NCBI GenBank assembly: GCA_963662285.2
Contig: CAXXMV010000006.1
Span: 672,001 to 736,000, forward strand
Direction: 5' to 3'
Length of the DNA stretch: 64,000 nucleotides
From: a bacterium
GTDB lineage: Bacteria > Hinthialibacterota > Hinthialibacteria > Hinthialibacterales > Hinthialibacteraceae
Shown here: piece by piece, positions 2,499 to 25,100 of the stretch
Position numbering within the stretch: the stretch's first letter is position 1
Layout of the letters: every line of letters starts with the position of its first letter
The notes under the pieces: generated by a model
Database searches by the model: none
What the model was told of the DNA's origin: nothing
Seen by the model: only the letters and a program-made list of their open reading frames with translations
Made by a program: the position numbers and the translations under genes

Positions 2499-2499
2499 A

Positions 2500-2686
2500 A
2501 ATTGGTTGGGCGAAACGGAAGCGGGCGCTGCAGGAGTGCAACCCGCCAGGGATAGCCGATCCGAGGTGCGAGGGATAATGCAGGAGGTGAAATATTCACC
2601 TCCTCCCTCTAAGCCAACCAATTATCCTGAGCATCTCTAGATGCCTAAAAAAAAACTCAAACAATAACCTGGGATAAATCCCGGTT
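2500..2686 (-). ncRNA. Candidate structured non-coding element in the 3' region of IS481 copy A
   Basis: Core 2509-2557 is homologous to 25046-25095 with compensatory changes. Stems 2500-2509/2614-2623, 2582-2591/2595-2604 and 2666-2686. Strand inferred from G-U versus A-C pairs. Confidence 0.65.
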
Positions 2687-2811
2687 TTGATAAAAAACTG
2701 TAACCCATGTCCCCGAACATGTGTTACCCATCTACCCGGTCTGTACAGGGGTTAGGGTGAGGGGGATATACAAAAACAACATAACTTAATAACATTAGAA
2801 ATAGGTGATGT

Positions 2812-3410
2812 ATGAAAAGAAATTCAGGCTTCACTCTAATCGAATTATTAATTGTTGTAGCAATCATCGGGATACTGGCGGCAATCGCCGTGCCCAATTT
2901 TCTCAACGCTCAGACGCGGGCGCGCGTGGCTCGGGTAATGGGCGATCACAAAGCCCTCGGAACCGCCTTGGAGATGTATTCACTGGATAACAATAATTTT
3001 CCATGGCCCATCGGAAACGGGCAAGGTCATTCGTCCTACTCGGTCTATATCGAATACCTTCACGAATTAACCACTCCCACTCCATATATAGCCAGCGTAT
3101 CCTACACCGATATCTTCAAACCCCAGCGTGAAAAAACCAACTGGTATCCGGATGACACGGTATTCAGTTATCAATATGTAAGTTACAACGGCAGTTGGGC
3201 GCGGTTGTCCAATGTATCTGCCGCCATGAATGGCACCCCGGTTACTGCATCTCCAGTTATGGTCCGGATCATGGCGCCAACGGGGTGGAATGGCATCCTA
3301 TCACCGGAGATTCCATCTCCCTTTACACATCCAGCAACGGCCTGGTCAGCAGCGGCGACATAGGCCGTTTTGGAGGATCAGTTAAATCACGCACCATCCT
3401 GGGTGGATAA
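2812..3410 (+). CDS. Type IV prepilin-like protein, frameshifted near 3197-3240
   Basis: G|FTLIELLIVVAIIGILAAIAVPNF methylation site. The family C-terminus (SYGPD...SNGLVSSGDI) is in the overlapping frame 3195..3410. Confidence 0.85.
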
Positions 3411-3510
3411 CCAACCAGTTCTTTCGCTAATCCAAGTAGACTCTCCCGCAATTTTTTGAGATAATCGAACTATTCGATTTATTATGCTATTTCTTATTGC
3501 AGGAGAAATC

Positions 3511-5604
3511 ATGGTCCGGCGAACATCTACTCATTTAATACTTCTGTTTTGCGGCTTCGTTGCATTCTCTTTCCTACTGGATATCCCTTGCTCAGCGCAG
3601 GAAACCGCTAATCCCATCATCTTCGGCGCCACTGTTGATTGGGGCTTGAAGCCGGAATTCGGGCCGAAGGTAGGAGAATATAAAGTTTCAGACCGAGTGA
3701 CTGTATCTGGCAGTGATGATAACCTTATTTACGATGTCTATGGGAATGGGGATAGCTTGGCCTATGCAAAAATATCAGAAGTCGAGTTCTTAACTCCAGA
3801 AACAAAAATCCTAGCAGAGCGAAAACTTGCGCCTACAGGTTATTCAGAAGATATCGATGTGTTTATAGAAGTCACGAACATATCATCATCTGCCAAAACA
3901 GTGAATATTATCGAACAACCTCCTGCTCGATATTCATTAAATAAGATCAGCCATAATGGAATAGTAGAAAACGGAAGCATTCTCTGGAATGTAAATCTTG
4001 ATCCGGGAACTACAATCTTACACTATACAGCTTATCCGTTTTCTTCTGATATTCGCAACGCAACGTTTCATGGCTCAATTGGATCTGATTCGATTTTGGG
4101 ACAAAACCAAACAATCAATTATAGAATTTACATAAGCAGTTTTAACTTCATGGTTTTTACAGGAATACCACTAGTCTTATTTCTGATTCATTTCTGTTTA
4201 TTCTTGTTTTATCCCCGCTTAAAAGAACATCTTTACTATGCTTTATTTCTCCTTTTCTCCGCAACAACTCACTATTTTTGTTTCAAATATCCCTTCATTG
4301 GTACTCATTCATACGAGGCAACCGCAAGATTTTACATTACACTTTTTTTTAACAGTCTACAATTTGTGATGCTTTTAATATTTTTTCATAAACATGTATT
4401 TCAAAAACTGACTTGGTATATCTGGATATTAATTATTCTCTTTATTTCAAAAGCATTATTCTATGCTTTAGCTCTCTGTATGCTGGTACATTTCCCCGAT
4501 CACGACTTTTCATATATAGTAAATTCTCCATTTTCTCTAGTGTTTACGAGTTATTATGCTTCTTTTCTTGTTCACATTGTGCTTGTTAGAGTACTTTTTT
4601 ATGTGTTATACAAGAAATTATCTGGAAGCCTATTTATCGCAATCGGTCTTTTTTTATGGTCCATAATAAACCTATGGGGATTTCTTAATTATTATCTAGA
4701 TTTTCCTGCTCCACCAATCAAATACCCTGAAATGGGAGGAATAGCGAACATACTGCTTCTGTTATCCATGTCAATATATTTGGCCTATCGCTTCGCCAAG
4801 ACGCAAGAAGAATTAGAAATCTTAAACGTTGAACTCGAAGACCGGGTTGAGCAGCGCACCCAGGACCTCAACACCATGAACACGGAACTTCAAGAAGCCA
4901 ACGCGCAATTAATTCAATTAGACCAAATGAAAACCCAATTCGTCTCCCAGGCTTCCCATGATCTACGCACCCCTCTTACCGCTATCAAAGGCAGCCTGGA
5001 TAACCTGCTGATGGGCATCGCAGGCGCTCTTAACGAAAAGCAGCAGAAGGTTATGACCCGCGCTACTTCATCAGTCGACCGCCTGACTAACCTGATCAAC
5101 GACGTCCTAGATCTAAACCGCATCGAGACCGGCCGCATAGTTCTAGAAAAAACCAATATCCCCTTCAAAACGCTGGTAGAAAATATTATTAATGAAAACA
5201 GTCCTGCGGCTGAGCAAAAGTGGATCACGCTTAATGCAAATCTTAGAGAAGAAATCAACCTTCACATTGATGGCGGCAAGATTGAGCGGGTGGTGGGAGA
5301 ATTGATATCTAACGCTATTAAGTACACCCCGGATGACGGTACAGTTGAAGTTGATATGTCCTGTGATGATGATATGCTTTCGCTATCGGTGAAGGATTCC
5401 GGTATTGGAATGACTCCAGAGGAATGCGCCAAAATCTGGGAGCGCTTCTACCGGACATCGGCATCACAAAAATTCGCCAAAGGTTCGGGGCTGGGGCTTT
5501 CGATTGCTAAAGAGTTGGTTGAGTTGCATGAGGGAACGCTTACAGTGGAAAGCGCGCAGGGTTTAGGAACCAAGTTTACTTTATCATTACCGCTAAATTG
5601 TTGA
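3511..5604 (+). CDS. Membrane sensor histidine kinase (7TM-type input region, HisKA, HATPase)
   Basis: SHDLRTPLT H-box, NAIKY, DSGIG, GSGLGL; about 7 TM helices; GGAG RBS before ATG 3511. Confidence 0.9.
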   Translation: MVRRTSTHLILLFCGFVAFSFLLDIPCSAQETANPIIFGATVDWGLKPEFGPKVGEYKVSDRVTVSGSDDNLIYDVYGNGDSLAYAKISEVEFLTPETKILAERKLAPTGYSEDIDVFIEVTNISSSAKTVNIIEQPPARYSLNKISHNGIVENGSILWNVNLDPGTTILHYTAYPFSSDIRNATFHGSIGSDSILGQNQTINYRIYISSFNFMVFTGIPLVLFLIHFCLFLFYPRLKEHLYYALFLLFSATTHYFCFKYPFIGTHSYEATARFYITLFFNSLQFVMLLIFFHKHVFQKLTWYIWILIILFISKALFYALALCMLVHFPDHDFSYIVNSPFSLVFTSYYASFLVHIVLVRVLFYVLYKKLSGSLFIAIGLFLWSIINLWGFLNYYLDFPAPPIKYPEMGGIANILLLLSMSIYLAYRFAKTQEELEILNVELEDRVEQRTQDLNTMNTELQEANAQLIQLDQMKTQFVSQASHDLRTPLTAIKGSLDNLLMGIAGALNEKQQKVMTRATSSVDRLTNLINDVLDLNRIETGRIVLEKTNIPFKTLVENIINENSPAAEQKWITLNANLREEINLHIDGGKIERVVGELISNAIKYTPDDGTVEVDMSCDDDMLSLSVKDSGIGMTPEECAKIWERFYRTSASQKFAKGSGLGLSIAKELVELHEGTLTVESAQGLGTKFTLSLPLNC

Positions 5605-5677
5605 CACGGTCCTGTTGTTATCTGACTTGTTCTTATGAAGTGATAAGTAAAATAAATTTTTACAGGAGGAAAGTTTC

Positions 5678-6898
5678 ATGAAAGTTGGAGTTGGATATTG
5701 TAATAAACAAGATGCTTTTGATTCTGGCAGAACAGTGGCGAGTGAAGCCATTCGTAGTGGTAATATAAATAAACCTGATATTGCCATAGCTTTTTGCAGC
5801 GGACAATTGAACCATGAAGAATTTTTGCAAGGCATCAAAGATACTGTCGAGGATACACCTGTAATTGGGGGTTCAACAATTGGAATTATTACTAATGATT
5901 ATTTATCATATGAAGACTACCCTTCAGGCGTCGCGATATTTCAATTAGATGACGTAAAATGTCAAATTGCCGTGTCTCACGGTCTAGATAAAGATGAAAA
6001 GTTAGCAGGATGTAATCTAACAAGGGAATTATCCAGAACACCAGAGGACAGACTTCTGCTTATGTTCTATGATTCAATAAAAGTTACCACATCCCCTGCA
6101 TCTCCTCCTGTTATGAATGCTTCTCCTCCACTAATTGAAGGAATTGAATCAATACTCCAATCAAATGCACCAATCATCGGCGCAGGATTAATCGGGGATT
6201 ATCAATTTAGTAATACAAAACAATTCTGTGGTTCTAATGTATTAGAGCAGAGTGTTGTTGGTGCGCTTCTTTCAGGTTCTGTTAATGTTTATCATAGTGT
6301 AATGCACGGGTGCTCTCCTATTGATGGTATATATCATAAAATAACCAAAATGCAAGACTCCGTTATCTATGAACTGGATGGAAAACCAATTGTAGAGATA
6401 ATTGATCAAATATATGGAGATCAAAGATGGAGAGAACAACGCCCTCTCAATCTTTTGACAATTGGAGTAAATTATGGTGAGAGATTTCAACATCAAGAAG
6501 ACGCTTATGTTAATAGATTGATTACAGGAATTCTTCCAGATTGCAGCGGCATTGGGATATTTGAGTCTGATCTTGAACAAGGCATGGAAATCCAGTTTAT
6601 GTTGAGAGACGGTAATCAAATGATTGAATCTGCCAGGAAAAATTCTGAAAGCTTAATGAAGAAGATTAACGATGAAGGGAAAATACCTGTTTTTGGTTTA
6701 TATATTGATTGCGCAGGAAGAGCGGCAGAGTGCTCAAATACAGAATCAGAAGAAGCAGCGGAAGTTCAACAAGTAATGAATAAATACGTAACTCCTTTGT
6801 TAGGTTTTTATTCTGGCGTTGAAGTTGCTCCTATTCTCGGAAAGAGCAAGGGGCTTGATTGGACAGGCGTCTTATTAGTTTTATCTAAGGACAAGTAA
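5678..6898 (+). CDS. FIST N/C domain signal transduction protein
   Basis: PVIGGST, IYELDGKP, DCAGR and GFYSGVEVAP motifs of the FIST_N/FIST_C domains. Confidence 0.88.
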   Translation: MKVGVGYCNKQDAFDSGRTVASEAIRSGNINKPDIAIAFCSGQLNHEEFLQGIKDTVEDTPVIGGSTIGIITNDYLSYEDYPSGVAIFQLDDVKCQIAVSHGLDKDEKLAGCNLTRELSRTPEDRLLLMFYDSIKVTTSPASPPVMNASPPLIEGIESILQSNAPIIGAGLIGDYQFSNTKQFCGSNVLEQSVVGALLSGSVNVYHSVMHGCSPIDGIYHKITKMQDSVIYELDGKPIVEIIDQIYGDQRWREQRPLNLLTIGVNYGERFQHQEDAYVNRLITGILPDCSGIGIFESDLEQGMEIQFMLRDGNQMIESARKNSESLMKKINDEGKIPVFGLYIDCAGRAAECSNTESEEAAEVQQVMNKYVTPLLGFYSGVEVAPILGKSKGLDWTGVLLVLSKDK

Positions 6899-6899
6899 A

Positions 6900-8600
6900 A
6901 TGGATGAAAAAGACGATTTAGCAAAAGAATTAAAAAAAAGATGCACAGAGTTAGAAAATAAGGCGGAATATTACCAAGGTATTGCAGAAAAAGCTGGACA
7001 AAAACGTTTAAGAGAAGTTGAACAATTAAACAGACTTATATCTGACCACAAGAAATCAGAAAAGGCGTTGCGGGAGAGTGAGCAGCATTTTAGACTTATT
7101 GCTCAATCAACCAATGACATTTTCTACGAGTGGGATATTGAGAGTGGAGAATTGAACTGGTTTGGTGAAATTGATATCGTATTGGGTTATGAGGCTGGAG
7201 AAATCCAACATACCCTGGAGGATTGGTTACGTTTAATTCATCCAGAAGATAGACCCCTACTTGATGACGCCGTTTTACTACACAAGGAATCAACAAAACC
7301 TATAGATTATATATACCGGGTAATGTGTAAAGATGGCTCAATAAGATTTTGGAACGATATTGGTTCTCCTATTTTGGATCAGGAAGGTAAACCAAAGAAA
7401 TGGATTGGCGGCATTTCTGATATCACCGAACGAAAAAGATCAGAAGAATTCTTAAGGCAAAAAACTATAATGGAAGCAGTAGGTTCCTTGGCAGGAGGAA
7501 TTGCACATGATTTCAAAAACATCCTTGCTGGGATATTAGGATATACTGAACTTCTTCAGATGGATTTAAGTAGTAGTAATTTCTCTCCTAAACGGATAGA
7601 GTCACGATTAGATAAGATTCTTACTGCAGGCAATCGTGCTAAAGAATTAACCTCTCAACTATTGGGATTTTCAAGACAGGGACAATATAGCCCCAAAAAC
7701 ATTGATCCAAATCTAATTGTTTCTGAAGCATATGGATTAGTAGAGCGGTTGGCGAATGTTGAAGGGCAACAACTGTCTTTTTCTGGAAATGCAGCATCTT
7801 ATATTTACGCTGATCAAACACAATTTTATCAAGTCATTCAAAATATTATGATCAATGCAATATATGCAGGCAGCATAGGTAATAAGGTTAGTGTTACCAC
7901 GGAAGATGTTGCTGTTAAGAAACTTATATCTACAACAATGGGAAACATTCCTGAAGGACAATATGTTAAATTGACTATCAATGACAATGGGACAGGTATT
8001 GAAGAAAAAGTTCTTCCGAGAATATTTGAACCTTTCTTTACTACAAAAGAAAAAGGCAAAGGAACAGGAATGGGGCTTGCAATGGTTTATGGAATTGTTA
8101 AAAATCATAATGGTTACATCTCTGTTGAAACAGATACATCACCAGAAAACCATGGAACTACTTTTAGTGTATATTTCCCTGCTGTAGAAAAAAGAGAAAT
8201 TGAAAAAAATGAATATAATGGAAATATTACAGGAACTGGAAAAATACTTATTATCGATGATGAACTTTCCATAAGAGAGATGGTTCAAGATGCTTTAGAA
8301 ATGAAAGGTTATGAAGTTGTTACAGCTGCTGAAGGCCAAGAGGGACTTGAAAAATTTAGAAGTGGTAGTTTTGATGTTGTAATTACTGATTTGATTATGC
8401 CGCTTGGAATGGATGGTATTGAATTATGCAGAGAAGTCAGAGAACTTGATCCCAACGTTCCTATCTATGCAATGAGTGGATATCATCAAGATAAAAGTGT
8501 TCAGCAAATGCTTAGTAAAGGCGCTACTGGTTTTATAGGAAAACCTTTTAAGTTGGAAGAATTATATCAAATAATAAGTTCTGCATTAGCCCTCAAATGA
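6900..8600 (+). CDS. Cytoplasmic hybrid sensor kinase (PAS, HisKA, HATPase, REC)
   Basis: IHPEDR PAS; LAGGIAHDFKN; FEPFFTTK...GTGMGL; REC motifs IIDDE, DLIMP, KPF. Starts 1 nt after the FIST stop. Confidence 0.93.
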   Translation: MDEKDDLAKELKKRCTELENKAEYYQGIAEKAGQKRLREVEQLNRLISDHKKSEKALRESEQHFRLIAQSTNDIFYEWDIESGELNWFGEIDIVLGYEAGEIQHTLEDWLRLIHPEDRPLLDDAVLLHKESTKPIDYIYRVMCKDGSIRFWNDIGSPILDQEGKPKKWIGGISDITERKRSEEFLRQKTIMEAVGSLAGGIAHDFKNILAGILGYTELLQMDLSSSNFSPKRIESRLDKILTAGNRAKELTSQLLGFSRQGQYSPKNIDPNLIVSEAYGLVERLANVEGQQLSFSGNAASYIYADQTQFYQVIQNIMINAIYAGSIGNKVSVTTEDVAVKKLISTTMGNIPEGQYVKLTINDNGTGIEEKVLPRIFEPFFTTKEKGKGTGMGLAMVYGIVKNHNGYISVETDTSPENHGTTFSVYFPAVEKREIEKNEYNGNITGTGKILIIDDELSIREMVQDALEMKGYEVVTAAEGQEGLEKFRSGSFDVVITDLIMPLGMDGIELCREVRELDPNVPIYAMSGYHQDKSVQQMLSKGATGFIGKPFKLEELYQIISSALALK

Positions 8601-8828
8601 TTTTGATTTAATTAAATTCTCTGTTGGTCATCCTGATGGATATCACTTGGGTAATAAAATAATTCTGGCTTTGTATAAGATACAGTAATCCAATTCAGAA
8701 GATGTAATAGGAAACAGAACGATGTCCGTTCCACTTTGATTTCGTAGAGGAGCGTTAGAAAAATCTAATTCAAATCATGTCTTGTATATTTGCATTGCTA
8801 GTGCATAATTACAAGATAGGAGATTGCG

Positions 8829-9143
8829 ATGTCAGGATATATTCAACGCTCACTGGAAGATGTGCTGAAACGTTCAATCAAAGAATTTCCCGCTGTCGTT
8901 TTAACCGGACCACGCCAATCGGGTAAAACAACACTCCTGAAACATCTTCTTCTCAAAAAATTCAAATATGTTTCTTTAGAACCGCCTGATGTGAGAAATG
9001 CTGCCATCGCGGACCCGCGAGGTTTTTTAGATTTATATCAACCGCCAGTAATCTTTGATGAAATTCAGAACGCTCCCGATTTACTTTTCTATATTAAGGA
9101 ACATATCGATAATAACCGAAATAAATGCGGGAAGGCTTCATAG
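8829..9143 (+). pseudogene. N-terminal fragment of an AAA_14/DUF4143-type ATPase
   Basis: Walker A GPRQSGKTT and Walker B FDEIQ are present; the ORF is truncated after ~100 aa. Confidence 0.8.
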
Positions 9144-9282
9144 GCTGCACCATGCTAAAAAAGACGTAATTATTTACGATTATGTTGATTCGGAGATCCC
9201 CATGTTAACCAGAATGAGTGAAAAGAGAATACGAGGTTACCGAAGCCTTGGATATGAAATAATGACTAAAACGAATTCATGA
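9125..9282 (+). pseudogene. C-terminal fragment of a DEAD/DEAH-box helicase (TOTE-type primase-helicase-like)
   Basis: AGRLHR (motif VI)...VIIYDYVD...PML.RM..KR.RGY..LGY; no N-terminus. Confidence 0.7.
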
Positions 9283-9298
9283 TAAGAATGAGCGAACA

Positions 9299-11731
9299 AT
9301 GAAATCAATAGCGAAAACAAAAAAAACAAAACAACCCAAACCAAAGAAAACGCCGCGAACCCGGAAACCAGAAAATATGTCGTTGTCCGAGTGGCAAACG
9401 GCGCTACGGAAAGAGTATGGACGCGACCAAGAGTTTCAAATAAAAAATATTGGAAACGAACCCATCTTCTCTGAATTCTTAGTGACCAATCCTCAAAGTG
9501 AAAGAACGTATCGTGTAGCAATCCGGGGGAATCAACCGGGACAGAATTATTGTTCCTGCCCGGACTTCGCCGTTAACTTGCTGGGAACCTGCAAGCATAT
9601 TGAATTCACTCTATCGAAATTAGAACGGAAGCGCGGCGCTACAAAACAATTCCGCGAGGGTTTTATTCCTACCTATTCAGAAATCTATCTGCGTTATGGT
9701 AAGAAACGAGAGGTCTGCTTCATCCCAGGCAGCGATTGTCCCGAAGATTTGCGGAAATATTCTTTCAGATTCTTCAACAAAGAAGGAAAACTTCGCCCCC
9801 ACGCGTATCTGAAATTTCATACATTCTTGAAGAACGCACCTATAAACGGACACGATTTCCGATGCTATGAAGACGCCATCCAGTTCATCGCTCAACTCCG
9901 TGATGACGATCAACGGGAAAAGCGCATTGATCGTGAATACCGTCAGGGAATAACCAGCGCAAAATTCAAGTCACTACTAAAGGTCGATTTGTATCCCTAT
10001 CAGCGAAAAGGAGCACTGTTCGCCGCCAAAGCAGGACGTTGCTTGATCGGGGATGATATGGGATTAGGCAAGACAATCCAGGCCATTGCGGCAACAGAGA
10101 TTCTCGCTCAAACATCAGGCGTTGAAAAAGTGCTCGTTATTTGCCCGACGTCCTTAAAGCACCAATGGAGGCAAGAAATCGATAGATTTACGAAGAGGTC
10201 TTTTGCCGTCGTGGAAGGCTCGATAAAAAAACGCAAAGAGATATACCAAAACGATTCGTTTTACAAAATTGTCAATTATGATGTCATTCACCGCGACCGT
10301 ATTCTTATTAAAGAATGGTCGCCGGATTTGATTGTTCTGGATGAAGCGCAACGCATTAAAAATTGGAACACGCGCAGGGCGCAGAGCGTGAAACGATTGA
10401 AATCAAAATACGCTTTTGTGTTAACCGGTACGCCTTTGGAAAACCGTTTGGAAGAACTGCATTCCATCGTGGAATTTATCGACTGTTTCCGCCTGGGGCC
10501 TCTTTACAACTATTTGGCCGAACACCAGCATACCGACGAGGTTGGGAAAGTTATCGGCTACAAAAATTTATCTAAAATCTCAGAATCCCTCCAGCCGGTA
10601 TTGATACGCCGCACCAAAGGCGAAGTCTTGAAGGAGCTTCCAGAGCGCATCGATAAACATTTCTTTGTGCCTATGACAAAACAACAAAGTGAAATCCATG
10701 AGAGCAGCCAGGAAGCCGTCGCTCAAATTGTACATAAATGGAGAAGACTTGGTTTCCTTACTGATAAAGATCAACGCCGTCTTATGGCGGCGCTGCAATG
10801 TATGCGTATGTCGTGCAACAGCACTTTTCTGATTAACCAACAATCCGATCACGGTACAAAAGCCGATGAGGCGGTTCAATTGTTCGATGAGATTTTAGAA
10901 GATCCCAAGGCAAAAATCGTCGTTTTCAGTCAATGGCTTGGCACCCATCAAATCATCATCAACCGCCTCGAATCGAAACCCTGGCAATATGCATTCTTCC
11001 ACGGATCATTGACAAGTGAGGAACGTGGCAAACTCATCAATAATTTTAAGAACGACCCGGAGTGCCGGATATTCTTTTCAACCGATGTCGGCGGCGTCGG
11101 CTTAAACCTTCAAAATGCATCGGTTGTGATCAATATGGATCAACCCTGGAATCCGGCTGTGCTCGAACAACGGATAGGACGAGTCCACCGTTTGGGGCAA
11201 AAAAGATCTGTGCAAGTTTTCAACTTCGTTGCGGAAGGAACGATTGAACATGGGATGCTGGATGTTTTGAAATTCAAGAAATCCGTTTTCGCCGGAGTTC
11301 TCGATGGCGGTGAGAACGAGGTGTTTCTCGGCGGGACAAAACTCAAAAAATTCATGGATACCGTCGATCAAGTTTCACAAAATATTCCCAGTACGCCGCC
11401 TCCGCAAGAAGAGCAATTTGATGACAGTCATGATGATTTTATATCCGATGAAGACCGCCTCGAAGAAAAGGAACAGTCCGCTCAGAAACCAGTTGGCCAA
11501 GAACAAGATATTTTGACAGATCTTCTTTCGACTGGATTGGACTTCATTAATAAACTCGGACAAACATTAGAAAACTCAAACACTGACAGAGACAATAAAT
11601 TTATTGGCAAGGATGAAAAAACTGGAGAACGTTTTATAAAATTACCCATCCCGGATCAAGACACTGTTAAAAAAATATCCGAGATAGCCGAACCGTTTCT
11701 TGATATCATTCGAAACTGGTCTAGCAAGTAA
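9299..11731 (+). CDS. SWIM zinc finger + SNF2-family helicase
   Basis: CSCPDF...CKH SWIM finger; DDMGLGKT, DEAQ, TGTPLEN, QRIGRVHR. Confidence 0.93.
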   Translation: MKSIAKTKKTKQPKPKKTPRTRKPENMSLSEWQTALRKEYGRDQEFQIKNIGNEPIFSEFLVTNPQSERTYRVAIRGNQPGQNYCSCPDFAVNLLGTCKHIEFTLSKLERKRGATKQFREGFIPTYSEIYLRYGKKREVCFIPGSDCPEDLRKYSFRFFNKEGKLRPHAYLKFHTFLKNAPINGHDFRCYEDAIQFIAQLRDDDQREKRIDREYRQGITSAKFKSLLKVDLYPYQRKGALFAAKAGRCLIGDDMGLGKTIQAIAATEILAQTSGVEKVLVICPTSLKHQWRQEIDRFTKRSFAVVEGSIKKRKEIYQNDSFYKIVNYDVIHRDRILIKEWSPDLIVLDEAQRIKNWNTRRAQSVKRLKSKYAFVLTGTPLENRLEELHSIVEFIDCFRLGPLYNYLAEHQHTDEVGKVIGYKNLSKISESLQPVLIRRTKGEVLKELPERIDKHFFVPMTKQQSEIHESSQEAVAQIVHKWRRLGFLTDKDQRRLMAALQCMRMSCNSTFLINQQSDHGTKADEAVQLFDEILEDPKAKIVVFSQWLGTHQIIINRLESKPWQYAFFHGSLTSEERGKLINNFKNDPECRIFFSTDVGGVGLNLQNASVVINMDQPWNPAVLEQRIGRVHRLGQKRSVQVFNFVAEGTIEHGMLDVLKFKKSVFAGVLDGGENEVFLGGTKLKKFMDTVDQVSQNIPSTPPPQEEQFDDSHDDFISDEDRLEEKEQSAQKPVGQEQDILTDLLSTGLDFINKLGQTLENSNTDRDNKFIGKDEKTGERFIKLPIPDQDTVKKISEIAEPFLDIIRNWSSK

Positions 11732-11781
11732 TTGATCTTAGATTAAATCAATCTCCTCATGGTATACCTCTTTTGCACAGG

Positions 11782-12195: not shown

Positions 12196-12421
12196 CAGTA
12201 GCAATAATCGATTTTTCTGAAATCACTCAAATATCGGTAAATATTTCCTCATCAAAAAACAGGTATTCCTGGTCAATTGAACCCGATTGTAAGGATGGTC
12301 TCATGATTCCAAATGTTATCATTTCAGATAATATTGTCAATAGAATTTTCCATCTATACAACCAGTACTCCACTAAAGCACTCTATTAAAATACTTCTTA
12401 GAAAGTTATCATAAAACCACT

Positions 12422-15403: not shown

Positions 15404-15469
15404 AATAGAATAGTTAACATAACAACGTTCTTATTCGCGTAATAAACAAGCATTTTTTTGAGAACCGCA

Positions 15470-15589
15470 CTAGTAGTATGACAGTTTCTTTTGTCAGGTA
15501 GGGTTCTGTGATTCCCCCTCACCCTAGCCCTCTCCCGGAGGGAGAGGGGACTTTGTTAGCCCAACATTATGAGTTGGTCATAGTACTAG
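15470..15589. mobile_element. MITE-like element bounded by CTAG and enclosing a REP-like hairpin
   Basis: CTAG at 15470 and 15586; imperfect IRs TAGTATGAC.../TACTATGAC...; the right half recurs at 51621-51695. Confidence 0.55.
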
Positions 15590-15613
15590 CAACATATGAA
15601 AATTTGAAGAAAA

Positions 15614-16723: not shown

Positions 16724-16838
16724 GCAACTCAATCAAGGGCAGAAAATACACTGCCCTTGGCACCCGCCTTGATTATACAACATGCGATTTTATATGAGCG
16801 TCTCTGGGATTACTCAATTACCTTTATTGTGTTTTATA

Positions 16839-17981: not shown

Positions 17982-18096
17982 GTCGCACTTTCTGATATTT
18001 ATTCGATTCTGACTTGGTTATCAGCCGGGATTTGTTATACTTAAATTCTGAATTACTTTAATGAATGACGCCAAACATTAAACCTAGGGGCAATCT

Positions 18097-21000
18097 GTGA
18101 CCAAGTATATTCTCTCTACTATCCGTTTTTTATCCTCTACTAAACTAGCTGTTGTTCTTCTTGTCGGTTTAACCATTATATTAAGCATCGCTACTTTTTA
18201 TGAATCAAGCACCAGCGCATCCGACGCCCAACGCTTATTCTATAAATCTTTCTGGTTTAATATCCTTTTATTTCTACTCGGATTAAACGTATTATGCTCT
18301 GCTTTAATCCGTTGGCCATGGAAGAAACAGCAGATTGGATTTGTTATAACCCATTTAGGGATTATTCTAATTCTAATCGGTGCAGTGATTACCAGCACTA
18401 CCGGCATCGAAGGCCAACTAGCGCTGATTGAAGGCCAAACTGGCGATTCGATAACCATTCCTGAATCCGTTTTTACTGTAAAAGCGCCACGTTTGAAAGT
18501 CCAACAGGATTTTGATCCCTGGTTTTTAGAGTCACCTATTCCCGACGGGAAAGAGATTTTATTTAACGTCGATCAAACTGCTATCAACTGTTACATCACC
18601 AGATTACTGTTTAATCCAAGAGTAATCGAGCATGTCACCGAAAATGGCCATGTCGATAATCCGGCCGTTCAAATCAAGTTTCACCATTCAGGACAATCAA
18701 TGTCAGAGGCGCATGAGTGGCTATTGGCCAATTCAGCGCAACGCAACCAGTTGAATTTAGGAGCGGGTTCTATAGTATTCAAACGCATCCAATCTCAAGC
18801 AGAGATGCAATCCATACTTGATTCAACCAAGGCGCCGACCAACCAGTTTACCATTCTGCTCAATGAATCCAATCAACTATCTTACATATCATTCGATTCA
18901 TCGGGTAATGCCAAAAACAATCAAATAACTCTTGAAAAGATTATTGAAACGCCCTGGCCATCACTTAAAATTTCAGTGGAGAAGTTATATCCCAAAGCGC
19001 AAATAAGTCAGGAACTGATAGACGCCGATGATCAGATGGGGGGTGGGCATCCTCTTCCTTTAGCGCAAGCCCGAATTGAATACCAAGGACAATCGCAACA
19101 ACTGAACATTTTCTATAACAGGCCAGAGACAATTACTATCGCCGGTGAAACAGTAGAAATTGAGTTTGGCCAAAAACAGGTTCCACTAGGTTTTTCTATT
19201 CAGCTGATTGACTTCCAAGCGCCCCGGTATCCGGGAACCAACCGCCCTTCGCGTTTTCAAAGCCAGGTCAAGCTGATAGATAAATCTCAAGGAATTAATG
19301 AAGAACGTTTGATATATATGAATAATCCTTTGGCATACAATGGCTTTCTGGTATATCAATCCAGTTATGAGGAAGGTGTTAATGGCAGGCCGGATACTTC
19401 TATATTCAGCGTAGCGCTGGCGCCGGGAACGCCATTGGTTTACCTGGGTTCCTTTGTACTATGCTGCGGAATGGCTTTTATGTTCTTTAGAAAAATGAAG
19501 AGAAAACAAGAAAATATATTAACCAACCAAGGGCAAGGAGTAGGCTCTATCGTGAGACGCAGTCTTCTGCTCTTAGGATTGATGGCAATTATCATTCCTA
19601 CGGTTCAAGCAGTTGAAGTTCCCAAGAACCTTAATTACGACATTGTCCGCAGCATCCCCATTCTCGAAGGCGGACGCTATAAACCGCTCGGTACATTCGC
19701 TGGCGAATCGATGCAGGAGATCACCGGACGTTGGAAATTCAATAAGACTGATCCCATGGCGTATCTATGCGCCATGATGATTTCGCAGGAATGGTATAAC
19801 GAACCACTTATCAAGATTAATTATCATGCGCTCAAAGAGATGTTGGGCTACAAACCTGAGCGAACCCATTTCTCATATAAAGAGTTGGTATCCAATCAGC
19901 AATTCATGGATTTGGTCGAACGGATTCGGCAGCGCATGATGATGCATACTGAACTGACCCGTTTGGAAACTGAACTGACCATAGTTTATAACAAACTGGA
20001 ACTGTTTGATCAGATTCAAACCGGCGAAGCCTTAACAATCGTACCAGCGACAGGCGATGATGAAGAAAAGCCCTGGCTGCCAATTATTAAACCGTCGGAT
20101 TACCCGCAAGAGACGCAGCAGGAATTACATACAGTTTTTGTACATCTACTGGATGCCGCCAAAGCTGATGACGCGGCCATGTTCAATAAGTATGGATTAG
20201 AATTAAAGAATATCCTGGCTGGATTGAACAACGAACTTTACCCTCCAATCATAGATATAGAGCGTGAAGTGGTTTATAACAGTTCCCGGCCTTTTCTTAA
20301 ATCATGGATTTTTTATCTGCTCTCATTTCTAATGTTCCTGGCGTCGTTTTATTTTATGAAATCCAGGCCGCTTTATTGGGGCGCTATGGCCGTCTGCCTG
20401 ATCGGCTTCAGTTATAACACCTGGGGACTGATATTCCGGGGTATGATTGCGCACCGGGCGCCGGTCTCTAATATGTATGAATCGGTGATATTCGTCGGTT
20501 GGGGGATATTGCTGTTCGCTTTGATCTATGAATTGATATACCGCGCCAGATGGTTCGGCGCCCCGGCGTCGTTGCTGGGAGTATGCACCTTGATCCTGGC
20601 CGATATCCTGCCCTTTGATCCTAATATCGAACCACTGCAACCAGTGCTGCGCAGCAACTACTGGCTGATAACCCATGTTCTGACTATCACCCTGAGTTAC
20701 AGCGCCTTCTTGCTGGCTATGGGATTAGCGCACATAAATCTCGCCGTCTATTTCTACATTCCCAACCGTAAGGATTTACTCAATAATTTGAGTTTGTTCC
20801 TATACCGCATCCTGCAAGCGGGAGTAATTCTACTCGCCGCAGGGACGCTGCTGGGCGGGGTATGGGCGGCTGAATCCTGGGGGCGCTTTTGGGGTTGGGA
20901 CCCTAAAGAGACCTGGGCATTGATATCACTATTAGGATATATGGCAATCCTGCACGCCCGCTTTACTGACTGGATCGCGGATTATGGAACCGCGGTTTGC

Positions 21001-21216
21001 TCAATCATCGGCTTCTGGCTTATCCTGATGACCTGGTATGGGGTTAATTTTATATTGGCTTCGGGTTTGCATAGCTATGGATTCGGCGCGGGTGGAACCA
21101 TTTATATCATTATCTTTATGATTGTTGAAACCCTGTTCCTGATTATTGTTGGCGTTAAATATCTCATCGCTATATTTAAGGGTGGTTATTGTCTGAATCA
21201 GGATGACCAGGATTAA
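18097..21216 (+). CDS. ccsA: System II cytochrome c biogenesis ResB-like + CcsA (single ORF as assembled)
   Basis: THLGIILILIG, MNNPL.YNG...YQSSY (ResB); WAAESWGRFWGWDPKETW (WWD motif) and GLHSY. Confidence 0.9.
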   Translation: MTKYILSTIRFLSSTKLAVVLLVGLTIILSIATFYESSTSASDAQRLFYKSFWFNILLFLLGLNVLCSALIRWPWKKQQIGFVITHLGIILILIGAVITSTTGIEGQLALIEGQTGDSITIPESVFTVKAPRLKVQQDFDPWFLESPIPDGKEILFNVDQTAINCYITRLLFNPRVIEHVTENGHVDNPAVQIKFHHSGQSMSEAHEWLLANSAQRNQLNLGAGSIVFKRIQSQAEMQSILDSTKAPTNQFTILLNESNQLSYISFDSSGNAKNNQITLEKIIETPWPSLKISVEKLYPKAQISQELIDADDQMGGGHPLPLAQARIEYQGQSQQLNIFYNRPETITIAGETVEIEFGQKQVPLGFSIQLIDFQAPRYPGTNRPSRFQSQVKLIDKSQGINEERLIYMNNPLAYNGFLVYQSSYEEGVNGRPDTSIFSVALAPGTPLVYLGSFVLCCGMAFMFFRKMKRKQENILTNQGQGVGSIVRRSLLLLGLMAIIIPTVQAVEVPKNLNYDIVRSIPILEGGRYKPLGTFAGESMQEITGRWKFNKTDPMAYLCAMMISQEWYNEPLIKINYHALKEMLGYKPERTHFSYKELVSNQQFMDLVERIRQRMMMHTELTRLETELTIVYNKLELFDQIQTGEALTIVPATGDDEEKPWLPIIKPSDYPQETQQELHTVFVHLLDAAKADDAAMFNKYGLELKNILAGLNNELYPPIIDIEREVVYNSSRPFLKSWIFYLLSFLMFLASFYFMKSRPLYWGAMAVCLIGFSYNTWGLIFRGMIAHRAPVSNMYESVIFVGWGILLFALIYELIYRARWFGAPASLLGVCTLILADILPFDPNIEPLQPVLRSNYWLITHVLTITLSYSAFLLAMGLAHINLAVYFYIPNRKDLLNNLSLFLYRILQAGVILLAAGTLLGGVWAAESWGRFWGWDPKETWALISLLGYMAILHARFTDWIADYGTAVCSIIGFWLILMTWYGVNFILASGLHSYGFGAGGTIYIIIFMIVETLFLIIVGVKYLIAIFKGGYCLNQDDQD

Positions 21217-21237
21217 AGGATATGCAGGATTTCCGTT

Positions 21238-21317
21238 TAGGGCAACCATGAAGGATTGCCCCTACTTGTTATCGTTGGTGGATTTTTGATGGGTCGGTGA
21301 AGCGTGACCCATCCTAC
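21238..21317. repeat. Pair of GTAG-type REP-like palindromes
   Basis: GGGCAACC..GATTGCCCCTAC and GATGGGTC..GACCCATCCTAC hairpins ending in CTAC. Confidence 0.7.
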
Positions 21318-21413
21318 GCATTGGTGGATTTTTGGTTAAGGTATCTTATAGTGGTTATCATGAATAAACCTATTCATGATAACCACTTTTTTCGTCATTT
21401 CTTCCCTATTCAA

Positions 21414-23270
21414 TCAAAACATCTTCTTCAAGACGCCAACTTCTATGTTGCTGGGGTATTTTGCAGAGCGATATATGCTGTTAGTTACTTTGATGAAATC
21501 ATCTTGATCCGCTTCAAAAATATTGGGGACGTATTTCTGTGGATTGCGGTCGATAAACGGGAACCAGGTGCTTTGTACGTGAACCATGATCCGGTGTCCG
21601 CGCTTGAAGTTGTGTAAGACATCCCACAACTCAAATGATACTTCGGTAATTTCATTTGGGTTAAATGGCTTGGGTTTCTCGTAACTTTCGCGGAAGCGGC
21701 CCCGGAAGGCTTCAGCGCGAATTAAGGCTTGTTGAGCCGACTTTTCTTCCAAATCATCTGGATATACATCAATCAATTTTACGATCCAATCCGAATCGGT
21801 TCCGGTGGTGGAAACGAATAGATTGGCTTGGATGGTTCCAGCCAGCGTTACGTCTTCTTCGAGAATGTCTGTTTGATACACCAATACATCCGGCCTGCGG
21901 GATGCGAAGCGTTGGTCTTCTGTGTAAAAGGTGTTGTTTATAAACTGCGAATTATCCTTGGTATGGGGAACAGGTTTGGCGGGATCGCTGATATAAGAAT
22001 CAAGAGCCTTGGAACCTTCTTTGGGTTTGTTAAATGACAACGCCCCGTTTTTGTTGAAATAGAATTTGGTTCTCTCAGCCGATTTGGGCGGCCATTGATC
22101 GAAATGCCGCCAACGATTGGCGCCGGTTTCAAACATTAAGGCTTCGGGAAGGTTGAGTTCGCCTGCTTCATCTTTTAAGTAATGCTTAAAGAATTGTAAG
22201 TCGACGTTGTTCTTGAAATACTCAGAGGTGGGGAATCCAAAATCTGCATCGCCCAACTCGCTTCCCTGGTCGCCAAGCCATCCACCATGGCGCCACGGCC
22301 CCATGACCAGCATGTTAAAGATATCTGGATTCTCCTGCTCAATCTTCTCATAGGTTTTTAATGGCCCGAATAGGTCTTCGCGGTCGTACCATCCGCCGAC
22401 CACCATAACCGCCGCTTTGATGTTTTTGAGATGAGGCCGGATATTGCGTTTCTGCCAGAACGAGTCGTAATTGGGATGTTGCGTTACATTAGTCCATAAT
22501 TTGGATTTCTTTTCAAAATAGGATTTATCAACATTTTTCAATGGCCCTACATCCATAAAGAATTTGTATGCATCGGTTGTTTCGATTTCATAGATGGGAT
22601 CAGACCATTCATCAACAAGCCCTTCCCGTTTTTGCGGAACTCTATTGAGAAAGCCAAACCAATGATTAAGTAAATAGGCGCCGTGATGGTAAACATCATC
22701 CCAACAAAAATCCGTAACCGGCGCTTGCGGGGAGACCGCTTTTAAGGCGGGGTGAGAATCTATAGAACCGGCTGACGCGTAAAAACCGGGATAGGATATT
22801 CCCCATTGCCCGACTTTTTCATTATGATTGGGGATATTATTCAGGAGCCATTCAATCGTATCATAAGTATCAGTACTTTCATCGATATCTTTATTGCTTT
22901 TCTTGTCAGCGATATGCGGAGTCATGTGAACAAACTCACCCTCCGACATAAAACGCCCCCTTACATCCTGATAGACGAATATAAAGCCTTCTTTCTCGAA
23001 CGCGCCATGCGGACTGATAGCGCCCCGGTATTGATCGGGTCCATAGGGGCCAACGCTATATGGGGTGCGTAACAGTAATATTGGATATTTTTTATAGACA
23101 TCGTTGGGAGTATAAATTGAGGTGAATAGTTTCACCCCGTCACGCATGGGGATGCGGCATTCATACTTAGTGTAATTAGCGCGGATATAATCCGCCCGTT
23201 CATCCGCTTGAACTAAACCAAATTGCATACAAAACAAGAAGAGACAAACATACAAAACTTGTTTTTTCAT
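21414..23270 (-). CDS. CocE/NonD family hydrolase (alpha-amino acid ester hydrolase-like), secreted
   Basis: IPMRDGVKL, RTPY, QDVRG, GISYPG nucleophile, GPWRHG; signal peptide. Confidence 0.92.
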   Translation of the reverse strand: MKKQVLYVCLFLFCMQFGLVQADERADYIRANYTKYECRIPMRDGVKLFTSIYTPNDVYKKYPILLLRTPYSVGPYGPDQYRGAISPHGAFEKEGFIFVYQDVRGRFMSEGEFVHMTPHIADKKSNKDIDESTDTYDTIEWLLNNIPNHNEKVGQWGISYPGFYASAGSIDSHPALKAVSPQAPVTDFCWDDVYHHGAYLLNHWFGFLNRVPQKREGLVDEWSDPIYEIETTDAYKFFMDVGPLKNVDKSYFEKKSKLWTNVTQHPNYDSFWQKRNIRPHLKNIKAAVMVVGGWYDREDLFGPLKTYEKIEQENPDIFNMLVMGPWRHGGWLGDQGSELGDADFGFPTSEYFKNNVDLQFFKHYLKDEAGELNLPEALMFETGANRWRHFDQWPPKSAERTKFYFNKNGALSFNKPKEGSKALDSYISDPAKPVPHTKDNSQFINNTFYTEDQRFASRRPDVLVYQTDILEEDVTLAGTIQANLFVSTTGTDSDWIVKLIDVYPDDLEEKSAQQALIRAEAFRGRFRESYEKPKPFNPNEITEVSFELWDVLHNFKRGHRIMVHVQSTWFPFIDRNPQKYVPNIFEADQDDFIKVTNSIYRSAKYPSNIEVGVLKKMF

Positions 23271-23351
23271 GATACGGTTCCTCCTTTAATGTAATTATCC
23301 ATACTTTATTATGGTTCCATGCTGCATTTTCTTTTACAAGAGTGGTCATTA

Positions 23352-23484
23352 TCAACCCTCTCCTAACCTCTCCCAATCTTGGGAGAGGGATGTATGATTA
23401 AAGTGTTTTCAAGAACTAAGTCTAAACGATCTAAATGTCTATGTATCATAACCCCTCTCCCCCAAGCCTGGGGGAGAATTCAAG
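23352..23484. repeat. CCCTCTCCC/GGGAGAGGG REP-like hairpins (second copy split by IS481 B)
   Basis: Copy at 23352-23390 and an inverted copy from 23452 that continues at 25305-25317. Confidence 0.75.
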
Positions 23485-23578
23485 TGTATGAACCGGGCAC
23501 ATCCTTTACAGAATAAACCGGGCACATGGTTTACACAAGTCGATACTAAGAACCGACCAGAAGAAAGGAGTCGGTTCG

Positions 23579-24790
23579 ATGACTTGGAAGGAAAACAGTG
23601 CCATGGATGCAAGAATGAAATTTATTGCGGATGTCCTCCGCAAAGAAGACACACTAAGCGCCTTATGCCAAGCATATGGCATTAGTAGACCAACCGGATA
23701 TAAATGGATCAAGCGCTATCAGGAAGACGGTCCTGGTGGATTGGAGGAGCGATCCCGGGCGCCCCATACCCAAGCACTAGCCGTTTCTAAAGAGACCGAA
23801 AAAGAAGTGAAGGCTATGCGAAAAAAGTTTCCGCACTACGGTCCTAAAAAATTACGGGTGGAACTGAAAAAAAAGGATGCGACGAAGCACTGGTCGGCAA
23901 CCAGTACGATTGGCGAGATACTAAAACGCAAAAATCTGATTGTCAGCCGCAAGCAAAAAGATCGCGCCAAACCAAGTGGTGAAGCGTTAACCGAATTCGA
24001 CCAAGTGAACCGCGTATGGTGCGCGGATTTCAAAGGAGATTTTCTAACGGGAGACGAACATCGATGTTTCCCTTTAACCGTATCGGAAGGGGCTAGCCGC
24101 TATTTACTCTGCTGCCAAGGCATGCAAGAAACCAATGGCGCATTGGTACGCGTAATTTTCGAGCAGATTTTTCGCGAGTATGGTTTACCAGAAGTCATTC
24201 GAACGGATAACGGGGCGCCCTTTGCGTCGACCGGAATCGGAGGGTTAACCAAATTATCCGTGTGGTGGATAAAACTGAGAATTTATCCAGAACGAATCCA
24301 GCCGGGTCGGCCTCAACAAAATGGCCGTCATGAGCGAATTCACCGGACCTTGAAAGCAGAGGCCATTTCTCCACCAGCGCCAACGCTGCGTGAACAACAA
24401 AAACGTTTTGATCAATTTCAAAAAGTGTACAACGAAGAGCGGCCTCATGAGAGTTTGGGACAACGACCTCCCGCGCAGTTGTATCAACCCTCGCCGCGCG
24501 TCTATTCAGGTAAAGCGCCGAATTGGGAGTATCCAGAGACCATGCAGGTGCGCCAAGTGAAAACCCATGGTGAAATCAGTTGGCGAAGCAAGCATTGGTA
24601 TTTGGGGGAAGCTTTGGGAGGTGAATTGGTGGGACTAGAGGAATTGGAAGAGAATAATTGGCGCATTAGTTTGGGTAACGTGATTCTCGGTTGGTTGAAT
24701 ATGTCAAAAGGTGAGGTGGTGCGTGAATTGTCTTTGAGACGCATCAATCATCCAAAAGCAATCAGTCACCCGGCAGTATGTCCCAGGTAA
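23579..24790 (+). CDS. IS481-family DDE transposase
   Basis: SRPTGYKWIKRY; WCADFKG, TDNG, NGRHERIHRTLK; YNEERPHESL. Confidence 0.95.
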   Translation: MTWKENSAMDARMKFIADVLRKEDTLSALCQAYGISRPTGYKWIKRYQEDGPGGLEERSRAPHTQALAVSKETEKEVKAMRKKFPHYGPKKLRVELKKKDATKHWSATSTIGEILKRKNLIVSRKQKDRAKPSGEALTEFDQVNRVWCADFKGDFLTGDEHRCFPLTVSEGASRYLLCCQGMQETNGALVRVIFEQIFREYGLPEVIRTDNGAPFASTGIGGLTKLSVWWIKLRIYPERIQPGRPQQNGRHERIHRTLKAEAISPPAPTLREQQKRFDQFQKVYNEERPHESLGQRPPAQLYQPSPRVYSGKAPNWEYPETMQVRQVKTHGEISWRSKHWYLGEALGGELVGLEELEENNWRISLGNVILGWLNMSKGEVVRELSLRRINHPKAISHPAVCPR

Positions 24791-24916
24791 AAAATGAGCT
24801 AGGGAAGTATCAAGATGATGAATAATTCAGGTATTAATTTTCCTGAGATTGAATCCAGATCGTCTCTTTTTCGAGAAAATCAAAGAGCGCACGGGTGAAA
24901 AAAAAGGTGGCAATAT

Positions 24917-25100
24917 CGGGGGCGCCGCCCCCGTACCCCCGGAGTTTTTTTAGGCATTAGCACAAACTCCAGATAGTATGCAAAAAAAAGCAAAGGGACG
25001 GTTCTAAATCCGTCCCTTTAGCGACTATCCGTCGCCCGTGCACCAGGATATCCCTTGACAGGTTGCTCTCCAGCAGAGCCTGTCTCCGTTTCTCCTGGTG
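24917..25100 (+). ncRNA. Candidate structured non-coding element in the 3' region of IS481 copy B
   Basis: Stems 24917-24933, 24941-24947/24964-24970, 24972-24977/25024-25029, 24992-25001/25010-25019 and 25041-25048/25093-25100. Core covaries with copy A. Confidence 0.68.

Follow-up and report, generated by a model that had tools for sequence, protein, structure and literature searches.

RNAs encoded by bacterial insertion sequences (ISs) have recently been found to serve as guides (omega RNA, which includes the former orphan motif HEARO, whose function was assigned later) and as recombination bridges (IS110). The loops of bridge RNAs are programmable guides which match the target and the donor of each element, and the partner protein is a DEDD recombinase. 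Here we describe a structured module of approximately 190 nt which is shared by two IS481-type elements, here called IS-A and IS-B, within a 64,000-nt stretch of DNA (the window; position 1 is its first letter) from a bacterium of the phylum Hinthialibacterota (assembly GCA_963662285.2, contig CAXXMV010000006.1, positions 672,001 to 736,000), and which is probably a small RNA gene with a promoter of its own. A described case is that of Ssr9, or MITEPpu9, a small RNA (sRNA) gene which hitchhikes behind the transposase gene of ISPpu9 (an IS110 element) in Pseudomonas putida KT2440 (PMC12288879). As far as the accessible part of that source goes, Ssr9 occurs in three P. putida strains alone, has copies of the IS ends on both sides, is mobilised by the ISPpu9 transposase and is complementary to Asr9, the antisense RNA of its own element (PMC12288879).

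The module lies inside both IS elements of the window, between the transposase stop codon and the right inverted repeat, and its orientation is opposite in the two. The reverse complement of 2509-2557 aligns with 25046-25095 at 39 of 50 columns, with one gap. Eight of the ten substitutions fall in four two-sided compensatory pairs (one in helix P1, two in P2 and one in P3), one is a G-U/G-C change and one is a change in a bulge. The homology of the two copies spans approximately 190 nt and takes in a short helix with a variable hairpin inside it, the sequence GAG-T(n)-AGGCAT (2641-2658, reverse complement, in IS-A and 24942-24957 in IS-B) and an outer hairpin. Both copies fold far better than shuffled sequences (z = −6.49 and −4.48). 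A preliminary description of this DNA had given the same alignment, substitutions, extent and opposite placement, and all of these held on recounting. The two host elements are as follows:

1241-2747, plus strand: IS-A, an IS481-type element of 1507 bp with inverted repeats at 1241-1289 and 2699-2747.
1236-1240 (left) and 2748-2752 (right), no strand: GGGGT, the 5-bp target duplication of IS-A, read directly from the sequence.
1332-2498, plus strand: IS-A transposase, 388 aa, with the Pfam domains rve, rve_3, HTH_32 and LZ_Tnp_IS481.
23485-25304, plus strand: IS-B, an IS481-type element of approximately 1.8 kb with inverted repeats at 23492-23536 and 25252-25296, its ends being judged by eye.
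23579-24790, plus strand: IS-B transposase, 403 aa, with the same IS481-type Pfam domains as the IS-A transposase.

Both transposases have rve, rve_3, HTH_32, HTH_28 and LZ_Tnp_IS481 above the curated Pfam cut-offs, which places them in the IS481 family, and they are clearly divergent, as had been noted before, with 35% identity (122/349). Of the two further marks of this family, inverted repeats are present in both elements (49 nt in IS-A and 45 nt in IS-B) and a short target duplication was found in IS-A alone, no clear one being seen at the by-eye ends of IS-B. The genome contains 18 near-identical copies of IS-A (100% rounded identity; one spans just 13-1507 of the element) and 5 full matches to IS-B.

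Read on the strand which we propose below, the module would form three domains: domain 1, consisting of P1, P2 and P3 with purine-rich unpaired segments; domain 2, consisting of P4 and P5; and domain 3, consisting of P6. Its parts in the two copies are:

2469-2496, plus strand: predicted RNA promoter of IS-A (TTGGCA, 16 nt, CACAAT), 9/12 matches, overlapping the end of the transposase open reading frame (ORF).
2502-2565, plus strand: RNA domain 1 of IS-A, a match to model R1 (contig 674502-674565, plus strand) at 70.9 bits.
2573-2627, plus strand: P4 of IS-A (GGAUAAU with AUUAUCC) around the variable hairpin P5 (2582-2604), from the fold and from family-wide covariation of P4.
2628-2659, plus strand: P6 of IS-A (UGAG with CUCA), its loop holding AUGCCU and an A-run, from the sequence and from compensatory variants in homologues.
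2669-2688, plus strand: terminator-like hairpin and U-run of IS-A, directly before the right inverted repeat, from a terminator scan.
25107-25136, minus strand: predicted RNA promoter of IS-B (TCTACA, 18 nt, GATAGT), 8/12 matches, pointing inward from the right end.
25038-25102, minus strand: RNA domain 1 of IS-B, a match to model R1 (contig 697038-697102, minus strand) at 81.3 bits, and from the fold.
24971-25030, minus strand: P4 of IS-B (GGAUA with UAUCU) around P5 (25020-24991), then U8, from the fold and from P4 covariation.
24939-24972, minus strand: P6 of IS-B (CUGGAGUUU with AAACUCCGG), its loop holding AUGCCU (24957-24952) and an A-run, from the fold and the sequence.
24898-24935, minus strand: G+C-rich hairpin and distant U8 run, a possible RNA 3' end in IS-B, found by eye and not called by the terminator scan.

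The predicted RNA would therefore extend from 2503 to approximately 2690 on the plus strand in IS-A and from approximately 25100 to approximately 24938 on the minus strand in IS-B.

To collect homologues, a degenerate pattern of conserved blocks, four of which were fixed, was scanned over one genome per species. At least 111 stretches matched, and the homologue sets used from here on are drawn from among the matches listed. On inspection by eye, four loci (L049, L101, L108 and L160) were taken for chance or aberrant matches, and no later count includes them. A covariance model of domain 1, R1, was built from 112 distinct sequences and has 64 positions and 18 pairs; further homologues were found in many genomes by the search of this kind which the preliminary description had proposed. 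For the covariation alignment 83 of 94 full-length references were kept, the 11 dropped being three near-duplicates (L068, L149 and L183), seven references of more than 200 nt (L070, L097, L104, L107, L111, L135 and L181) and one which was mis-anchored (L162). The collection of tails leaves out 25 loci which had no AUGCC tail by regular expression or which lay at a contig edge, and 14 lower-scoring R1 loci were used to judge the real variation of the conserved blocks.

Domain 1 consists of P1 (approximately 8 bp), an internal loop with GAAACGGA on its 5' side and AGGGAUA on its 3' side, P2 (5-6 bp), a 3-nt bulge and P3, which is UGCN paired with N'GCA around a GGAG loop. The IS-A copy has all of these parts, and the bulge reads CGC in IS-A and CUC in IS-B and most homologues. 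Among the 83 aligned sequences, 84.5% of domain 1 cells are in standard pairs (68.9% when shuffled) and 272 cells are changed on both sides (98 when shuffled), values reached by 0 of 500 shuffles in each case. Two-sided change is seen in 15 of the 18 pairs, and the covariation score is 0.491 vs at most 0.135 when partners were slid. The fourth pair of P3, for example, is U-A in 74 sequences, G-C in 5, A-U in 2 and C-G in 1.

P4 is a long-range helix between the segment after P1 and the one directly preceding P6, and the variable hairpin P5 lies within it. In 73 non-redundant sequences the longest P4 helix averaged 8.60 bp with its own partner and 5.97 bp with the partners of other sequences (0/5000 permutations), and the duplex energy was −14.7 vs −8.3 kcal/mol (0/2000 permutations), in windows which also take in the arms of P5. 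Dozens of differing helix sequences were seen, including AAAAUGUC/GAUAUUUU, AAAACGUC/GAUGUUUU, GGAUUGUC/GAUAAUCC, GGUGAAUGUC/GACAUUCAUC and GAAUAUCGUC/GAUGAUAUUC. The covariation of P4 indicates that the RNA continues past P5, and P5 was rejected as a simple terminator, with an A-run before it in 37/108 sequences and a T-run after it in 7/108 (by a hairpin picker which was often wrong) and covariation of P4 beyond it.

P6 pairs (U/G)GAG with CUC(A/C) around a loop which holds AUGCCU and an A-run, and corresponds to the GAG-T(n)-AGGCAT of the preliminary description as seen from the opposite strand. The motif was found in 91/108 sequences by regular expression and as 6 further variants by eye. 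Its compensatory forms are UGAG/CUCA, GGAG/CUCC (IS-B, L096, L124 and L178), UCAG/CUGA (L176) and CCGGA/UCCGG (L105), while the pairing is missing in a few copies (L079, L098, L156 and L138); it should be noted that the support for P6 thus consists of variants judged by eye, with exceptions. A small ORF starting at AUGCCU was also considered and rejected: the reading frame which starts at this AUG is shorter than 10 codons in 71/114 copies, the spacing to CUC varies, and the AUG itself varies in distant members.

The segments UAUCCC, CUCC and UCCGUUUC (as read on the strand of the preliminary description) are identical between the IS-A and IS-B copies, but their reported invariance does not extend to distant members of the family, where they vary and in part covary. 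Within the 14 lower-scoring loci, the 5' side of the internal loop reads AAACGGA, AAGCAUA, AAACUUA, AAGAUGA and others, the 3' side AGGGAUA, AGGAAUA or AGCAAUA, and the P3 loop GGAG, GAGG, GGGG or GGCG, and AUGCCU is replaced by AUGGCU or UUGGCU. The position of the promoter box is kept in these loci. Changes from A to G on one strand of the internal loop accompany changes from G to A on the other, which suggests that the loop holds a non-canonical pair. A kink-turn was rejected for this loop, the required G and A varying in distant members. The conserved features which were not part of the search pattern are the GGC-UCU-GCUG...AGC core, AUGCCU, the A-run, CUC, P4 and P5. Judged from the alignments, the three-domain fold is under selection, and the earlier reading of the module as a selected, structured, non-coding and autonomous unit of approximately 190 nt, rather than a terminator of the transposase gene, was supported.

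The strand of the RNA was judged from promoters and from wobble pairs. We examined 112 distinct 75-nt regions upstream of AAAC on the proposed strand, calling a sigma-70-like promoter at a minimum of 8/12 matches with at least 4/6 in the −35 box. The −10 box ended 13-16 nt before AAAC in 24 of the regions (17 at 14 nt), and any other distance was found at most 4 times. AT-rich, Bacteroidota-type copies showed a TTTG ending 11-13 nt before AAAC (38/112 regions, 25 of them at 12 nt), with a second TTTG peak 27-28 nt further up in 21 sequences, a paired pattern which we take to fit the −7 and −33 boxes of Bacteroidetes promoters. One promoter type or the other was present at its fixed place in 59/112 upstream regions; the predicted transcript start is the foot of P1, and the predicted promoters follow host lineage. 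The predicted −10 box ends 16 nt before AAAC in IS-A, within the family-wide peak, and 15 nt before it in IS-B, whose CTnnAG-17-GATAnT arrangement is also seen in IS3-borne copies from related genomes. As for wobble pairs, domain 1 has 117 G.U vs 49 A.C on the proposed strand when the terminal P2 pair is left out, and P4 helices reach 8.60 bp with G.U allowed vs 7.34 bp with A.C instead, G.U making up 72/628 pairs.

Because the promoters are locked in position and G.U is in excess in both domain 1 and P4, the strand most likely to be transcribed is the opposite of the one on which the preliminary description had folded the RNA (UAUCCC...CUCC...UCCGUUUC). It follows that in IS-A the RNA would be co-directional with (sense to) the transposase and that in IS-B the two would be convergent, which reverses the earlier assignment of sense to IS-B and antisense to IS-A. 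A structure in RNA or in single-stranded DNA had been proposed; of these RNA is favoured, and single-stranded DNA is unlikely given the promoters. We regard a self-transcribed structured RNA gene on the proposed strand as likely. Of the marks of an independent sRNA gene, the structure is seen, a predicted promoter is suitably placed in 59/112 regions, and a terminator is clear in IS-A and ambiguous elsewhere.

Model R1 finds 25 copies of the module in the genome of the window. Two diverged solo copies also lie elsewhere in this genome, adjoining remnants of other transposase genes. The pattern matched 10/20 genomes of the same family, and a reversed control pattern had no matches in these 20 genomes. 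Considering the 25 copies, the empty control and the strong covariation in 83-112 distinct homologues, the match between IS-A and IS-B is far beyond chance. R1 matches were found in 18/35 genomes of the class (which is the whole phylum in the collection) and in 24/151 evenly drawn genomes of another class, that of locus L074 (seed genome counted). Many of the latter matches lie 17-80 nt from contig ends, as expected of multi-copy elements. The module is spread over more than 10 phyla among the matches listed, these including Bacteroidota, Verrucomicrobiota, Planctomycetota, Acidobacteriota, Cloacimonadota, Nitrospira, Zetaproteobacteria, Lentisphaerae, Spirochaetota, Armatimonadota and others.

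The genes which the module adjoins belong to IS3, IS481, Mutator/IS256-like, IS110 and IS21 elements. When the two window transposases served as tblastn queries, rve genes were detected next to some copies, on either side, and the clusters of ORFs near the module include 34 Mutator-like and 31 rve ORFs. There were 51 distinct ORFs in convergent orientation to the RNA, of which 12 had rve, 12 Transposase_mut (weak matches) and 4 HTH_21. Another 32 were co-directional and upstream of it, with rve in 5, IS110 in 2, IstB in 1 and AAA_25 in 2, the remainder being host genes. In the plasmid pACPOL3 of Acidisarcina polymorpha SBC82 an unannotated domain begins 15 nt past an annotated IS110 transposase gene, and Oligosphaera ethanolica DSM 24202 also carries the RNA (locus L105); both hosts can be cultured and are harmless. 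No ORF of at least 150 aa was present in either neighbouring position at 38/108 loci, in many cases because the locus sits at a contig end. Both orientations relative to the IS gene are common. The occurrence of the module with IS3, Mutator/IS256-like, IS110 and IS21 genes in many phyla means that it is not a feature of IS481 elements, as had been supposed; by this distribution it is a passenger which has been transferred between at least five IS families and across many phyla.

Several single loci are also worthy of note. L150 has a fragment of approximately 17 codons from the 3' end of a Mutator-like transposase gene downstream of the RNA gene, in an inverted arrangement, and L165 has a copy of the tail motif upstream of the promoter; such rearranged modules may help to define how the cargo moves. 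The diverged copies L256, L257, L253 and L258 share a block, GGGA(G/A)TGTAAA...ACTGTG, approximately 25 nt before the promoter box, which is probably the end of a further IS type. A group II intron domain (RF02001, 115 bits) at L127:7777-7949, in a Sphingobacteriales locus, lies approximately 3.8 kb from the RNA gene and is probably unrelated to it.

Database searches yielded no family to which the module could be assigned. At Rfam 15 gathering thresholds there were no matches in the whole window, and in 18 other loci only tRNA and the group II intron domain were matched, elsewhere in those loci; with E up to 10, four copies gave only chance-level rows. We found no description of the RNA in the literature searched, and its 15- and 17-base core was in no paper on either strand or in either alphabet, supplements and ISfinder lying outside this search. 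As far as these searches reach, the RNA family is undescribed, in line with the preliminary description, which knew of no characterised equivalent for IS481 elements.

The anatomy, covariation, distribution and promoter placement described so far were observed, and to them we add a proposal for how the RNA might work. Each element would carry a complete small RNA gene, with a host-type promoter and a three-domain transcript of approximately 165-190 nt followed by a hairpin, in the position between the last gene and the right end, where IS cargo may do no harm. The RNA would act in trans as a folded RNA, binding a cellular partner shared by its hosts through the conserved unpaired nucleotides, and this binding would favour the maintenance or spread of the carrier element. 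Since the same RNA serves elements with unrelated transposases, we would expect the partner to be a component common to the hosts, unless it is the RNA itself. This partner-binding mechanism, taken alone, is a tentative proposal to which we would give well under an even chance. The broader statement, that the module is an RNA gene passenger acting in trans as a folded RNA which favours its carrier, seems to us slightly better than an even bet.

A number of findings weigh against this interpretation. By the criteria used, 53/112 upstream regions have no promoter. At the terminal P2 pair the wobble count is reversed (A.C 42 vs G.U 4 on the proposed strand); we read this position as an unpaired A and C, and it still counts against the proposed strand. 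P1 makes just 6/8 pairs in IS-A. The terminator, clear in IS-A, is ambiguous in other copies, and the 3' end is ill-defined in many. In Bacteroidota copies and in IS-B, P5 and its U-run resemble a terminator, and if P5 acted as one the RNA would end before the 3' strand of P4 and before P6. Invariance of the four blocks fixed in the search pattern is partly by construction in the pattern-scan set, and the shuffle statistics overstate the signal because homologous sequences are related. The search for what the RNA might act on was also unsupportive, with CsrA (PF02599) in 1/5 carrier genomes tested and with complementarity to the leaders of the elements' own transposase genes no greater than in shuffled sequences, as judged by a crude duplex energy calculated over long stretches.

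Among other explanations, the one which survives best is that the module regulates its own element's transposase in cis or as an antisense RNA. In convergent copies, transcription into the 3' end of the transposase gene would produce antisense RNA or interference, and in co-directional copies the module would be an element of the 3' untranslated region setting mRNA stability. In favour of this, the position of the module is always immediately beyond the 3' end of the final IS gene, and the Mutator-like elements of Bacteroidota have their final transposase codons and stop codon encoded by the complement of the P6 loop. However, both orientations are common and no single mechanism can fit both, while a plain antisense RNA would need neither the structure nor the non-canonical covariation of the loop nor the conservation across families. 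Complementarity to transposase 5' regions was also no better than in shuffled sequences, of which 37/300 and 233/300 did as well. We consider regulation of this kind unlikely.

It is distinctly less probable that the module is a ligand-sensing (riboswitch-like) or catalytic RNA whose core controls read-through at P5 or the downstream hairpins, or which cleaves itself. Such RNAs could account for unpaired nucleotides conserved across phyla, for the swap of A.G to G.A across the strands of the internal loop in distant members and for the hairpin and U-run arrangements after the core. They would be expected to control something, whereas no conserved ORF lies downstream, the longer downstream ORFs are unrelated and the downstream content flips with orientation; no riboswitch or ribozyme family was matched in Rfam 15.

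A transcription insulator, that is, a stable two-way terminator block which protects the IS end or the transposase gene against transcription entering from outside, would fit the position of the module beside the right end and the fact that P5 is often found between an A-run and a U-run. As it leaves the covarying domain 1, P4 and P6 and the fixed-distance promoter unexplained, we hold it to be quite improbable. We give even less weight to an element which acts at the DNA level, as a folded single strand, a site for a transposition protein or a hitchhiker like a miniature inverted-repeat transposable element. Ssr9/MITEPpu9 of ISPpu9 is a precedent for an sRNA gene hitchhiking in this way behind an IS110 transposase gene, as far as the accessible part of the source goes (PMC12288879), and folded DNA also tolerates G.T. 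But the transposases associated with the module are mechanistically different (DDE rve, DDE Mutator-like, DEDD IS110 and IS21), the predicted promoters follow host lineage, and IS-A and IS-B each have a single pair of inverted repeats, with no second copy of the IS ends around the RNA module. In IS-A there is no room for an internal IS end, since the RNA promoter overlaps the transposase stop. Finally, a sponge like CsrB/RsmZ, titrating CsrA through GGA motifs, is hardly credible and was rejected as a general explanation: although the unpaired segments on the proposed strand hold ACGGA, GGAG and AGGGA, these motifs are present in close members and variable in distant ones, and PF02599 was found in only 1/5 carrier genomes and in none of three Bacteroidota genomes or the Oligosphaera genome, while control genomes gave matches.

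The two host elements have further features of their own. Each inverted repeat of IS-A and IS-B (1241-1289, 2699-2747, 23492-23536 and 25252-25296) is made up of two tandem sub-repeats of approximately 24 nt, which are 75-96% alike between the elements despite the 35% identity of the transposases (repeat family D5). Close relatives of IS-A and IS-B which lack the module were sought in genomes of the same family, and fragments alone were found. IS-A is inserted within a palindromic repeat (CCCCTCTCCC...GGGGTTAGGGTGAGGGGGA; 1225-1240 and 2748-2775) resembling repetitive extragenic palindromic (REP) sequences, with more copies at 15513-15558, 51620-51665 and 53298-53343 (family D3). Several other IS-A copies are also bordered by CCCTCTCCC (loci L044, L054, L063, L067 and L069), which suggests that IS-A prefers this REP-like repeat as an insertion target.

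Other repeats were observed in the window. A 65-nt repeat with internal complementarity (GGGTGGCTTGATCAAGGGC...GCCCTTGGCACCC) is present in three copies which are 74-80% alike (32679-32743, 34033-34097 and 50444-50508; family D2). Short hairpin repeats of the GGTGGGCTACGCTTCGCTTTTAGCCCACC and GGTGGGTCGGTGAGGCGTGACCCACC types at 21284-21317, 28229-28272, 28301-28334 and 28352-28395 (families D11 and D14) look like another REP-like family. The three copies of a 105-nt repeat (2823-2927, 27680-27784 and 49746-49850; 66-83% alike; family D1) are probably paralogous pilin-like genes, the first copy overlapping the start of an ORF (2812-3363) with a prepilin-type methylation motif at its N terminus.

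Returning to the RNA gene and its proposed action in trans, we suggest, with somewhat less than even confidence, that it belongs to an unrecognised class of folded RNA which is carried as a self-expressed passenger by at least five unrelated IS families through the Fibrobacteres-Chlorobi-Bacteroidetes (FCB) and Planctomycetes-Verrucomicrobia-Chlamydiae (PVC) groups, Acidobacteriota, Proteobacteria and other diderm phyla, and which acts on a conserved host process and not on any single transposase. One possibility for its target would be a step common to elements which transpose via circular copy-out intermediates, the IS families found here presumably being circle formers. If true, the RNA would be a parasite or a helper of parasites, with a mechanism unlike those of guide, bridge or antisense RNAs. 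A well-folded RNA with a predicted promoter of its own is common to DDE and DEDD elements of several families, and is present in approximately half of the genomes of one phylum and one sixth of the sampled genomes of another class, but in no RNA-family catalogue searched. It follows that ISs exchange non-coding cargo far more widely than has been appreciated. With many matches 17-80 nt from contig ends, it also marks IS ends which break assemblies.

The bridge RNAs and seekRNAs of IS110/IS1111 resemble the RNA of this module in being structured RNAs of approximately 150-200 nt with internal loops, in a non-coding IS end. However, the loops are nearly identical here across elements with different ends and transposases and do not track the element ends, and most of the partner genes encode DDE enzymes, so that the RNA is not a bridge or guide RNA of that kind. 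The omega RNAs and reRNAs of TnpB and IscB (IS200/IS605 and IS607) are likewise structured transposon RNAs, encoded at a gene's 3' end and in some cases extending into its final codons, but the module lacks a variable guide segment at the element boundary and matches no Rfam family, and no TnpB or IscB domain was found among the neighbouring ORFs scanned. RNA-OUT of IS10 and art200 and 5'tnpA of IS200 are also small structured IS-encoded RNAs with their own or a shared promoter. As we understand it, and as far as the accessible part of PMC12594629 goes, each of these is specific to one IS family and is encoded at the 5' end of its transposase gene, whereas the RNA described here lies past the transposase 3' end and is common to several IS families. 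Compared with the part of PMC12288879 accessible to us, Ssr9 and the module are alike in lying downstream of a transposase gene as an sRNA gene (a probable one in the module) which has its own promoter (a predicted one in the module), is dispensable cargo and also exists as solo copies. They differ in that the module is found in many phyla and IS families, has no IS-end boxes or IS-end copies bordering the sRNA gene and shows no excess complementarity to its host element. Ssr9/MITEPpu9 would thus appear to be the nearest precedent for the RNA gene carried by IS-A and IS-B, as an analogue rather than as the same RNA.

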